Source: Escherichia coli O157:H7 (GTDB taxonomy: Bacteria > Pseudomonadota > Gammaproteobacteria > Enterobacterales > Enterobacteriaceae). Taken from it: a DNA stretch of 64,000 bases. Shown in pieces: positions 48,501 to 51,500 of this stretch. A program made the position numbers. The stretch lies in assembly GCF_013167455.1 (NCBI RefSeq), contig NZ_CP038328.1. One strand, given 5' to 3'. Within the stretch, counting starts at the first letter, position 1; each line of letters opens with the position of its first letter.

Positions 48501-51500
48501 CGTGGTGACCGCCAGCTCGCTTAAGGTTTCATGCGCGCCGCCAGGTACCGGCACTTCGGTACCAATGACATACTCCAGATCGGCTTCGCCAAAGTGTTCA
48601 AGACAGGTTTCTTCCGCCACTTTCGCCAGACGGGCGGCGCGTTCAGCCACGATGTCATCAGTTAAGGGAATCGGATCGTCCTGACAGGACATGCTGCAAT
48701 CAAGGTGGATTTTTTTGAATCCTGCCGCAACGTAGCTTTTAATCAAATCATCGGCATTGGCCATTGCCTGAGCGGCCGGCAGGTTTTGCCAGCGGTTTGG
48801 CCCCAGATGGTCACCACCCAGAATCAACGCATCCTGCGGGAAATTCAACGAGTCGGCGAGCTGACAAACAAAGCCGCGAAAATCGGCGGGCGTCATTCCG
48901 GTATAACCGCCGAACTGGTCTACCTGATTGGAGGTTGCTTCAATCAGTAACGGCGTTTGGTTTGCACTGGCGTAGCGGATTGCAGCCTCCAGCACCAGCG
49001 GATGTGCGGAACAAACGGCATAAATTCCATTTGTTTTGCCCGCTTTGTGCTGTCTCACCATTTCTGTCAGATGTTTCACTTTCCTCTCCAGTTCAGATTA
49101 CTGCGATATTAATCTTTCGTTTTGTTTCAGTTGATACTGCGTCATGGTGAGATAAAAATAAAACGAAAGATAATAGTTTTCTGATCTGATTCACAAAAGA
49201 AACATAATGAAAGTCACTGAAACGAGAGTAGCTTGCGTCAATGGGCAAGGTGGGCTTGCATTTGCTTAATAGAAAGGCGTTAATAGGCAAAACGAAATGA
49301 AACGAAAGTTTTACGAAAGGACTTACTATGAGTAATACCGACGCTTCAGGTGAGAAGCGAGTGACAGGCACCAGCGAGCGACGAGAACAGATCATTCAGC
49401 GTCTGCGACAGCAAGGGAGTGTGCAGGTTAACGATCTGTCGGCATTGTATGGCGTATCTACCGTGACGATCCGCAACGATCTGGCGTTTCTGGAAAAGCA
49501 GGGGATCGCTGTGCGTGCCTATGGTGGCGCGTTGATCTGCGATAGCACAACGCCGTCAGTCGAGCCATCAGTGGAAGATAAAAGCGCGCTGAACACCGCA
49601 ATGAAACGCAGCGTTGCGAAAGCTGCCGTTGAGTTGATTCAGCCAGGTCATCGGGTGATCCTCGATTCCGGGACCACCACTTTTGAGATTGCTCGTCTGA
49701 TGCGCAAGCACACTGACGTAATTGCGATGACCAACGGTATGAACGTGGCTAATGCGTTGCTGGAAGCGGAAGGCGTTGAGCTGCTGATGACCGGCGGGCA
49801 TTTGCGCCGTCAGTCGCAATCTTTTTACGGCGATCAGGCTGAGCAATCGCTGCAAAATTACCACTTCGATATGCTGTTTCTTGGTGTAGATGCGATCGAT
49901 CTGGAGCGCGGCGTCAGCACGCATAATGAAGATGAAGCCCGTTTAAACCGCCGGATGTGCGAAGTTGCGGAACGGATCATCGTGGTCACCGATTCCAGTA
50001 AATTCAATCGTTCCAGTTTACATAAGATCATTGATACTCAACGTATCGACATGATCATTGTTGATGAAGGCATTCCTGCGGATAGCCTGGAAGGGCTGCG
50101 AAAGGCTGGGGTTGAAGTGATTCTGGTCGGGGAGTGAGAAAGGGTGCCCGCTGGTCAACACGAATGCGTTCGGCGGGCATTGTGAACACCATCAATGGGT
50201 TTCTTCTGTCTCTCGGGTGAGGGTTTCCCAGTCGGCAGGAGGATGTCCTCTTTTTAACATTTTGCTGAATACGGTATAGGCATCTGTTTTTTTACCGTAG
50301 GTGCGCAGCGTGTTTTCATCGTTCATCCATCCCAGAATGATGACTTTCTCTTTTTCACTGTAACGAAAGAAGAGACGATAGCGACCAGCACCAAATTTTA
50401 CCCGTGACCAGTCTTTATTTTTCCCAGAGCCTAACGACTTGCCATGACGGAATGCCGGTGATGATGGATTGACCGTGATATGCTCCTCAATCACTTTATG
50501 GACCACCGCCAATAACTTTGTGGCAGCTTTTCTCTGATAATTTTCAGGATCTTTTCCCTTTAATGTCTCGACTTCGGCAACTAAAGCGTCGTAGGTTTCC
50601 TGAAAACAGGGATGAGCATATAGCGCCCAACCATTAACCCTTTGTGGAAAATCCATTATTCGTCGTCGCCAATCTCATCATCAATGTTGACGTCCATGCC
50701 AGCGACAAGTTTCTTTCCTTGTTGAATGTTGAATGGACGAGTTTTTTGCGGGTTGTTCTGGATATCTGTATCCAGAAAACGCAAAAATGCATTCATAGTA
50801 TGATCCTCCTGCTCATCTCCCAGTCGGCACATAAATACTTGCCCACCAGGCAGAATTTCGTAATGAATGCTGTCCTGGCCTGGCTTCAGTTTTAAGGCCT
50901 CACGCACTGGCGCGGGGATAGTTGTTTGTCCGCGTATCGTGACCTTTGATTCAGTGGTCAGTACAGCGTGAGAGCGAGCATTAGCGGGCATGATTCACTG
51001 TCCTTTTACAGCCTGTTTTCTGCTCAAATTATAAGCTTGAACTAAGGTAATGCAAATGCATTATTAATGGACGTGGGGGCTTTAAACAATAAAAACATGG
51101 CACTAAGGCCATGTTTTGCGAGGGACGTTCCAAAAGAAATCAGGTCACCGGTGCTGGGTTAAACACCGCCAGCTGGTTATGCAGTCCCCATTGATCCGAG
51201 AAGGTTTTCTTCTTCCCGCTGGCGACGTCGAGAATAAAGTGGAACAACTTCCAGCCCACCTCTTCAATGGTTTCTTCGCCGGTGGCGATAGTGCCCGCGT
51301 TAATATCCATTAAATCAAACCAGCGGTTCGCCAGCTCGGTGCGGGTCGCCATTTTAATGACGGGTACCGCCATCAGGCCGTACGGCGTACCACGACCGGT
51401 CGTAAACACTTGCACGGTGATACCCGAAGCCACCTGTTGCGTGCCACAGACAAAATCGCTGGCTGGCGTCGCGGCGTAAATTAATCCGCGTTTAGTCGGG

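Follow-up and report, generated by a model that had tools for sequence, protein, structure and literature searches.

Four predicted AgaR operators and a CRP-like site in a probable shared control region between kbaZ and agaR of Escherichia coli O157:H7

The 248 bp gap between the divergent genes kbaZ and agaR on the chromosome of an O157:H7-type Escherichia coli is very probably a shared control region for two divergent promoters, those of kbaZ-agaVWEFA and of agaR, with four AgaR operators and a kbaZ promoter assisted by CRP. AgaR operators and a CRP site between these genes are already known and ordinary, and a preliminary description of this DNA had aptly labelled the arrangement the expected architecture, AgaR operators in the gap having already been described. 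Its suggestion of AgaR operators in autoregulated divergent promoters was borne out by the identities of the genes, the near identity with K-12, a published site and conservation in 80 loci.

The locus and its repeated words

The window, i.e. the whole stretch of DNA that was analysed, is 64 kb in length and contains both flanking genes (Table 1). The product of kbaZ, the first gene of the kbaZ-agaVWEFA operon, scored 896.7 bits against the KbaZ equivalog profile of NCBIfam (cut-off 707), and that of agaR scored 577 bits against PRK09802 and 465 bits against the NCBIfam AgaR equivalog (cut-off 260). With kbaZ and agaR on its flanks, the array of operators lies in an aga-operon promoter region adjoining the gene of an AgaR orthologue. 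The gap was identical to that of E. coli K-12 MG1655 at 247 of 248 positions, the sole differing base (49175, A versus G) falling where its block is least conserved, and in its locus, its flanking genes, this identity and its matches to the consensus the array corresponds to the operators of the K-12 aga/gam regulon (Ray & Larson 2004). The strains differ in the agaW-agaA segment, which is intact in the O157:H7-type strain and is the site of a deletion in K-12. A minus-strand open reading frame of 100 aa (49093-49395) was rejected as spurious; it overlaps the start of agaR and its conservation is blockwise without codon periodicity.

Repeats of aacgaaag, gaaacgaaag and ctttcg in both orientations had been claimed for the gap in the preliminary description, and the words were found in place and in an excess far over chance. 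Both orientations were seen for aacgaaag, with three copies in the gap (plus strand, 49162 and 49301; minus strand, 49114), and for ctttcg, with four (plus strand, 49114; minus strand, 49164, 49303 and 49314), but not for gaaacgaaag, which has a single copy in the gap (49299) and its other copy in the window in the agaS control region (43767, minus strand). Such words could be functionless chance products of an AT-rich, low-complexity gap: the GC content of the intergenic region is 36% against 50% for the window, and one look-alike, TGAAACGAGAGT (49218-49229), considered and rejected as a fifth operator, does lie in unconserved sequence inside the spacer. However, when the intergenic region itself was subjected to 2000 dinucleotide-preserving shuffles, none reached the observed counts of CTTTCG (4 against 0.24 expected), AACGAAAG (3 against 0.03) or TTTCGTTT (4 against 0.06). 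Elsewhere in the window the motif occurs only in the agaS control region; seven of the eight copies of TTTCGTTT in the 64 kb fall within the two aga control regions, and the sequence-only pattern TTTC[AG]TT[TA][CT][AG]TTT has five matches in the gap, two at agaS and none elsewhere. Across the 80 orthologues the sites also keep their positions and are ~90% conserved, whereas identity in neighbouring sequence falls to 30%. An origin by chance is refuted by the shuffles, the conservation and the orthologue motif scan described below, and deserves next to no credence.

A third copy of acgaaag (49314-49320) consists mostly of the agaR Shine-Dalgarno sequence, and its 5' part is unconserved.

Table 1. 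Features of the kbaZ-agaR control region and the related sites of the agaS region (window coordinates; frequencies are majority frequencies in 80 orthologous loci; mismatches are to the 24-nt consensus unless stated)
Feature	Position	Strand	Remarks
kbaZ (agaZ) CDS	47799..49079	-	GTG start; ORF; NCBIfam equivalog KbaZ; RefSeq agrees
kbaZ Shine-Dalgarno, GGAGAGGA on minus strand	49082..49089	-	read from sequence; frequency ~0.9-1.0
AgaR operator O1 (predicted), AATCTTTCGTTTTGTTTCAGTTGA	49111..49134	+	3 mismatches
Putative kbaZ -10, CAGTAT on minus strand	49134..49139	-	predicted from sequence
AgaR operator O2 (predicted), TATCTTTCGTTTTATTTTTATCTC on minus strand	49149..49172	-	4 mismatches
Putative weak kbaZ -35, TTTATT, inside O2	49157-49162	-	predicted from sequence
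CRP-like site, TCTGA-N6-TCACA (TCTGATCTGATTCACA)	49180..49195		centre 49187.5; 1 mismatch to TGTGA-N6-TCACA
AgaR operator O3 (predicted), TGACTTTCATTATGTTTCTTTTGT on minus strand	49193..49216	-	1 mismatch
Unconserved spacer, kbaZ control module to agaR promoter	49217..49251		35 bp; frequency 0.44, identity to window base 0.30
Putative agaR -35, TTGCAT	49256..49261	+	frequency 0.95; promoter assignment predicted
Conserved AAAGAAAGG (CCTTTCTTT on minus strand), agaR promoter spacer	49269..49277	-	block 49268-49277, frequency 0.96
Putative agaR -10 region, GTTAAT with 17-bp spacer, or TAATAG	49279..49286	+	frequency 0.96
AgaR operator O4 (predicted), AAACTTTCGTTTCATTTCGTTTTG on minus strand	49288..49311	-	0 mismatches
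agaR Shine-Dalgarno, AAAGGA	49317..49322	+	frequency 0.90; preceding 49312-49316 only 0.49
agaR CDS, DeoR/GlpR-family repressor, 269 aa	49328..50137	+	NCBIfam; RefSeq agrees
agaS-region site	43764-43787	+	0 mismatches
agaS-region site	43842-43865	-	2 mismatches
agaS-region site	44001-44024	-	3 mismatches

Four operators and their conservation

The repeats resolve into four predicted AgaR operators of ~24 bp, O1 to O4, composed of TTTCR pentamers. The consensus of the AgaR operator is presumably the 24-nt sequence WRMMTTTCRTTTYRTTTYNYTTKK, with tandem TTTCR pentamers as its core; this string was not found in the literature searched. Allowing up to three mismatches it gave six matches in the 64-kb window against 0.22 expected, all in the two aga control regions, and the fourth site of the gap, O2, surfaced at four mismatches, but a caveat that applies to all of these matches is that they are not independent of a consensus first derived from the same K-12 sites. 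Independent evidence comes from the scan of orthologues and from the analysis of conservation.

The orthologue set comprised 80 Enterobacterales loci ranging from Escherichia to Yersinia, Serratia and Ewingella. The motif had 209 matches in the 80 intergenic regions (20 kb) against one in 430 kb of flanks, and it tracked the regulator, occurring at fixed positions beside 80/80 agaR orthologues. Operators, CRP site and the hexamers of the agaR promoter alike had majority frequencies of 0.89-0.96, against 0.44 for the spacer; the means were 0.89 for O1, O2 and O4 and 0.93 for O3, and the majority sequences of all four operators had CTTTCRTTWYRTTTY in common. The spacing of the elements was fixed in 71-80 of the 80 loci, as illustrated by the distances from O1 to O2 (48 bp, 71/80), from O2 to the right half of the CRP site (28 bp, 78/80) and from O3 to the CRP anchor (17 bp, 80/80).

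E. coli has DeoR-family paralogues, and SrlR, GlpR, YgbI, UlaR and DeoR each gave a score with the AgaR sequence. The main binder could on this view be another regulator, whether a global factor or such a paralogous repressor, and the role of AgaR a minor one. That the motif stands beside every agaR orthologue, is virtually absent from the flanks and occurs in the window only at two aga promoter regions makes this very unlikely. Direct binding of AgaR and repression at aga promoter regions have been reported in the literature, and deletion of agaR renders the regulon constitutive (PMC3668189). A 20-mer listed as the 'AgaR site from PkbaZ' in a study of synthetic promoters (PMC8667592, Table S3) maps to 49289-49308, within O4, and an isolated copy of O4 was sufficient for AgaR-dependent repression of a synthetic promoter in vivo (PMC8667592).

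O1 alone among the operators has the plus orientation, and it is paired with O2 as an inverted repeat. The repeat (49112-49127 and 49156-49171) could on that account be read as an RNA hairpin in a long kbaZ leader, its arms being of 16 nt and 94% complementary, its minus-strand fold having an energy of -13.5 kcal/mol with a modest z-score of -2.6, and weak sub-threshold Rfam matches falling over O1/O2. However, RNAalifold gave no conserved pairs across the 80 orthologues, and the Rfam matches scored 24.8 bits (threshold 70) and 21 bits (threshold 55), with no family at threshold. Moreover the motif has no complementary partner at its other occurrences (O3, O4 and the sites of the agaS region), and the predicted kbaZ start (~49127) falls inside the repeat, so that only one arm would be transcribed. 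With no near-threshold Rfam match and no conserved pairs, the cis-regulatory RNA or leader reading was rejected as extremely improbable.

Promoters and a proposed mode of control

Transcription of kbaZ would start at ~49126-49127. In the orthologues C-A-x-x-A-T is kept in the putative -10 while its two middle positions vary; O1 would span ~-7 to +17 of this promoter and O2 overlaps the putative -35. The CRP-like site lies between O2 and O3, and O3 abuts its right half with an overlap of 3 bp. The CRP match alone is at the level of chance (three matches in the window against 2.0 expected), and the 22-bp block that contains it has a majority frequency of 0.93, the left half being TGnGA or TCnGA and the right half TCACA or TCGCA among the orthologues. 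If CAGTAT (49139 to 49134) is the kbaZ -10, the centre of the site would be at -60.5/-61.5 from the predicted start. The kbaZ promoter is reportedly cAMP-CRP-dependent, as stated in the 2004 abstract of Ray and Larson; nothing that linked CRP with kbaZ or agaZ was found in the literature searched. O3 and the CRP site were absent from the preliminary description, O3 being degenerate and without the exact words.

Other promoter assignments were considered. TATTAT (minus strand, 49175 to 49170) was rejected as the kbaZ -10 because CRP would then sit at ~-24.5, a position incompatible with activation. Promoter-like matches on the plus strand (49131-49159 and 49147-49174) were not preferred, their -35 hexamers being poorly conserved and the GATAAT that they contain being accounted for by the TATC that flanks O2. 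No mapped start for agaR or kbaZ was found by gene name or coordinate prefix in the supplements of PMC4782308 and PMC4681348, or by promoter names in the literature.

The transcript of agaR would start at ~49291-49294. The distance from the -35 to TTAATAG is a fixed 25 bp between anchors in 78/80 orthologues, and the -10 likewise stands at fixed distances from both the -35 and O4 in 78/80. The putative -10 has T at hexamer position 2, without the usual A, for which reason it was missed in a scan with the promoter consensus. O4, which would span ~-3 to +21, is the predicted autoregulatory site of agaR. Within the promoter spacer the conserved stretch at 49269-49277, which in 79/80 orthologues is separated from the -35 anchor by 16 bp, gave no full-length match to the consensus at up to six mismatches; it resembles an operator half-site and may provide AgaR with an additional contact. 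A terminator-like hairpin at 49245-49259, which overlaps the agaR -35, consists mostly of unconserved sequence and was treated as due to chance.

In the mechanism that is proposed, the operator would be an element of 20-24 bp with about four tandem TTTCR pentamers (CTTTCRTTWYRTTTY...), recognised by the AgaR encoded next to it. When no inducer is present, i.e. during growth without N-acetylgalactosamine or galactosamine, AgaR would occupy all four sites, and from their predicted positions relative to the promoters it would cover the kbaZ start and -10 from O1 and the kbaZ -35 from O2, abut the CRP site from O3 and cover the agaR start from O4, resulting in negative autoregulation. The -35 of the kbaZ promoter is poor, and the promoter would depend on binding of cAMP-CRP to 49180-49195, in a class I geometry with the predicted start ~61 bp downstream. 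An inducer derived from the sugar would release AgaR and both transcription units would be derepressed. The exact starts, repression by occlusion and any cooperation between the sites are features that we infer. The AgaR sites are said to be placed 'upstream from the start sites' in the 2004 abstract of Ray and Larson, a wording that may fit poorly with O1 and O4 lying over the starts.

Sequence in the spacer is free to vary, but lengths across it are nearly constant: the O3 anchor is 49-52 bp from the agaR -35 anchor in 76/80 orthologues, O3 and O4 are 93-96 bp apart, anchor to anchor, in 75/80 loci and the whole intergenic region is 249-251 bp in 69/80 loci spanning genera. The near-constant gap length and O3-O4 distance, despite the free sequence, hint at looping of the spacer, and it is conceivable, if rather doubtful, that an AgaR oligomer bridges O1-O3 and O4, possibly together with 49269-49277, and shuts both promoters at once. 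AgaR is not known to bind cooperatively or to form loops. AgaR placed at -61 was found to stabilise RNA polymerase and to slow initiation (PMC8667592), and by analogy some AgaR sites may trap polymerase instead of excluding it.

Related control regions

The O157:H7-type strain keeps the textbook AgaR/CRP control region of the N-acetylgalactosamine pathway, essentially as in K-12; the importance of this beyond annotation is small and no new question is opened. The comparison of the 80 loci also yielded a clean phylogenetic footprint, in which operators, CRP site and agaR promoter stand at fixed spacing around a spacer of free sequence and near-constant length, and which could guide mutagenesis of the operators or help in designing GalNAc-responsive expression parts.

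In the GlpR (glpD/glpTQ) and DeoR (deoCABD) systems a sugar-catabolic promoter has several operators distributed over 100-200 bp, and activation by cAMP-CRP is combined with an oligomeric repressor that responds to a sugar phosphate. The kbaZ/agaR region is alike in its several spread operators and would be alike in combining cAMP-CRP activation with a repressor of this kind, but AgaR sites are direct repeats of tandem TTTCR pentamers whereas those of GlpR and DeoR are described as palindromes.

A related control region is found in the same window. In the control region of agaS-kbaY-agaBCDI (43713-44062) there are three sites of the same motif, and no CRP-like match at up to one mismatch was found there. 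The 10-mer GAAACGAAAG is common to this region and the kbaZ/agaR gap, but the agaS region serves a single promoter, whereas the kbaZ/agaR gap serves a divergent pair.

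Repeats and operators in the kbaZ-agaR interval

The 248-bp gap between kbaZ and agaR (49080-49327) had been described from its repeat words as a control region for AgaR, the DeoR/GlpR-family repressor encoded by agaR. The words are real and occur in both orientations, with three copies of aacgaaag (two plus, one minus) and four of ctttcg (one plus, three minus). Of gaaacgaaag, also put forward as a repeat, the interval holds one copy, and the sole other copy in the window lies in the agaS control region. As the intergenic region is AT-rich (36% GC), the null model was that region itself, shuffled 2000 times with dinucleotides preserved. 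CTTTCG was found four times against 0.24 expected, AACGAAAG three times against 0.03 and TTTCGTTT four times against 0.06, and in each case 0/2000 shuffles reached the observed number. Within the 64-kb window 7/8 copies of TTTCGTTT fell in the two aga control regions.

The words mark out four ~24-bp sites, O1 to O4 from the kbaZ side towards agaR, each consisting of about four tandem TTTCR pentamers. Database summaries of the work of Ray & Larson in 2004 are said to give the AgaR consensus as WRMMTTTCRTTTYRTTTYNYTTKK. This consensus, at three or fewer mismatches, matched six positions in the window against 0.22 expected, all in the two aga control regions, three of them upstream of agaS and three in the kbaZ-agaR interval. 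The pattern TTTC[AG]TT[TA][CT][AG]TTT, derived from the sequence alone, had five matches in the interval, two at agaS and none elsewhere in the window. The preliminary description had passed over O3, which is without the exact words, and a CRP-like site. The CRP-core match, taken alone, is at the level expected by chance in the window, and at one mismatch or fewer no CRP-like site was found in the agaA-agaS intergenic region (43713-44062). Two other elements fall away as operators: the repeat copy at 49314-49320 is mostly the agaR ribosome-binding site, its 5' half being unconserved, and TGAAACGAGAGT at 49218-49229 is a look-alike in an unconserved spacer.

Features of the two aga control regions and flanking genes (majority frequency is across 80 orthologous loci; mismatches of O1-O4 and the agaS sites are to the reported consensus)
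Feature	Position	Strand	Detail	Majority frequency
agaS array site (agaA-agaS intergenic region)	43764-43787	plus	0 mismatches	
agaS array, weaker match	43811-43834			
agaS array site	43842-43865	minus	2 mismatches	
agaS array, weaker match	43879-43902			
agaS array site	44001-44024	minus	3 mismatches	
agaV, full-length agaW, agaE	within 45193-47812		NCBIfam equivalog matches	
agaF	within 45193-47812		RefSeq annotation of matching O157 record	
kbaZ	47799-49079	minus	GTG start; KbaZ equivalog 897 bits, cut-off 707	
O1	49111-49134	plus	3 mismatches	0.89
O2	49149-49172	minus	4 mismatches	0.89
CRP-like site TCTGATCTGATTCACA	49180-49195		between O2 and O3; one mismatch to CRP core	0.93 (CRP block)
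O3	49193-49216	minus	1 mismatch	0.93
Spacer	49217-49251		35 bp, between kbaZ module and agaR promoter	0.44
TTGCAT	49256-49261			0.95
AAAGAAAGG block	49268-49277			0.96
GTTAATAG	49279-49286			0.96
O4	49288-49311	minus	0 mismatches	0.89
Segment 49312-49316	49312-49316			0.49
agaR Shine-Dalgarno			AAAGGA	0.90
agaR	49328-50137	plus	AgaR equivalog 465 bits, cut-off 260	

Conservation across 80 species

Phylogenetic footprinting used one agaR orthologue locus from each of 80 species, drawn from Escherichia, Citrobacter, Klebsiella, Enterobacter, Salmonella arizonae and diarizonae, Yersinia, Serratia, Ewingella, Cedecea and others. kbaZ was divergent from agaR in all 80, and the intergenic length was 249-251 bp in 69 of them (range 240-269). 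Overall identity to the window was 58-73%, yet conservation was sharply blocky. Spacing between anchors was also held, at 48 bp for O1-O2 in 71/80 loci, 28 bp for O2-CRP in 78/80 and 17 bp for CRP-O3 in 80/80; the putative agaR -35 and -10 anchors were 25 bp apart, and the -10 anchor 19 bp from O4, each in 78/80. The majority sequences of all four operators share CTTTCRTTWYRTTTY. Four 24-bp windows placed randomly in the intergenic region reached the mean conservation of the operators in 181 of 20000 trials, a modest result that reflects the equal conservation of the promoter and CRP blocks.

A consensus scan of the whole orthologue loci, which is independent of the K-12 sites that gave the consensus, found 209 matches in 20 kb of intergenic sequence, where they keep to the four positions of the operators, against a single match in 430 kb of flanking sequence. 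Chance as the source of the repeats is excluded by these counts, by the conservation of the operators and by word counts beyond those of the 2000 shuffles. Action of a regulator other than AgaR at the repeats is unlikely, as the motif follows agaR across the 80 species and is found only at aga promoters. O1 and O2 are mutually inverted (arms of 16 nt, 94% complementary) and could be read as an RNA hairpin; the predicted fold is modest (-13.5 kcal/mol, z = -2.6), conserved pairs are absent from the 80 sequences and Rfam lends no support. Over 49092-49189 Rfam gave sub-threshold matches only (MIR5298, 24.8 bits against 70; Phe_leader, 21 against 55), which appear to be artefacts of the inverted repeat.

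Relation to the K-12 control region

The flanking genes are kbaZ and agaR, divergent as first named, both with equivalog matches above cut-off. The intergenic region is identical to that of K-12 MG1655 at 247 of 248 positions; its earlier labelling as expected architecture of low interest was right. The sole difference, at 49175 (A in the window, G in K-12), falls where conservation within the O2/CRP block is lowest (majority frequency ~0.4). All features of the AgaR/CRP control region testable in silico were found, and the interval and the published K-12 region are one and the same locus, not mere relatives; the control region and its repeats are already known. Positions 48900-49500 match O157:H7-type chromosomes at 100%; of 5426 complete E. 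coli genomes, 5318 contain the region.

The genes downstream of kbaZ are agaV, agaW, agaE, agaF and agaA; the window therefore carries the full aga cluster, whereas in K-12 MG1655 the agaW-agaA deletion has left pseudogenes. The agaA ORF (44063-45217) is intact, with 384 codons from the first ATG. In the O157:H7 record PV15-279, a 100% match over the control region, the agaA homologue is annotated as a frameshifted 'nagA' pseudogene (L001 4168-5297), with coordinates offset by 4 bp from the window. The yhaV-prlF type II toxin-antitoxin pair (50192-50991) directly follows agaR and is encoded on the opposite strand; YhaV has a RefSeq annotation and no NCBIfam match.

Putative promoter layout and the central spacer

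The putative kbaZ -10 is CAGTAT (minus strand, 49139 to 49134), of which C-A-x-x-A-T is kept in the orthologues as expected of a -10, and the candidate -35 is a weak TTTATT within O2 (49157-49162). Transcription would then start at ~49126-49127, placing the CRP centre at ~-61, O1 at -7 to +17, O2 at -22 to -45 and O3 at -66 to -89. For agaR, TTGCAT-N17-GTTAAT would give a start at ~49291-49294 with O4 spanning ~-3 to +21. AgaR would thus occlude both promoters and crowd the CRP site, and CRP would provide the activation required by the weak kbaZ -35. The 2004 abstract of Ray & Larson reportedly places AgaR sites 'upstream from the start sites', wording with which this layout may disagree in detail.

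AgaR is reported to bind and repress these promoter regions. Deletion of agaR makes the regulon constitutive (PMC3668189), and a synthetic promoter with a single O4-type site shows AgaR-dependent repression (PMC8667592). That site maps to 49289-49308, the one difference being a T displaced within a T-run, which scores as three ungapped mismatches. Table S3 of the same paper gives the 'AgaR binding sequence from PkbaZ' as CTTTCGTTTCATTTTCGTTT, against CTTTCGTTTCATTTCGTTTT in the genome, one T having moved between T-runs, either by a typographical slip or as a deliberate variant. This 'PkbaZ' site adjoins the agaR start codon and is not near kbaZ.

AAAGAAAGG (CCTTTCTTT on the minus strand) at 49269-49277 lies inside the putative agaR promoter spacer, fixed in position in 79/80 loci; it is like half an AgaR operator and leaves the full consensus unmatched. 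The spacer at 49217-49251 has ~30% identity across the 80 species; in 75/80 loci the O3 and O4 anchors lie 93-96 bp apart. Since its sequence has diverged while this distance and the intergenic length barely vary, the spacer suggests a constraint on distance, not on sequence. The near-constant lengths, together with the conserved half-site, are compatible with a coupling of the kbaZ and agaR promoters through AgaR-mediated looping, a slightly novel loose end of modest interest, though such coupling is rather improbable.
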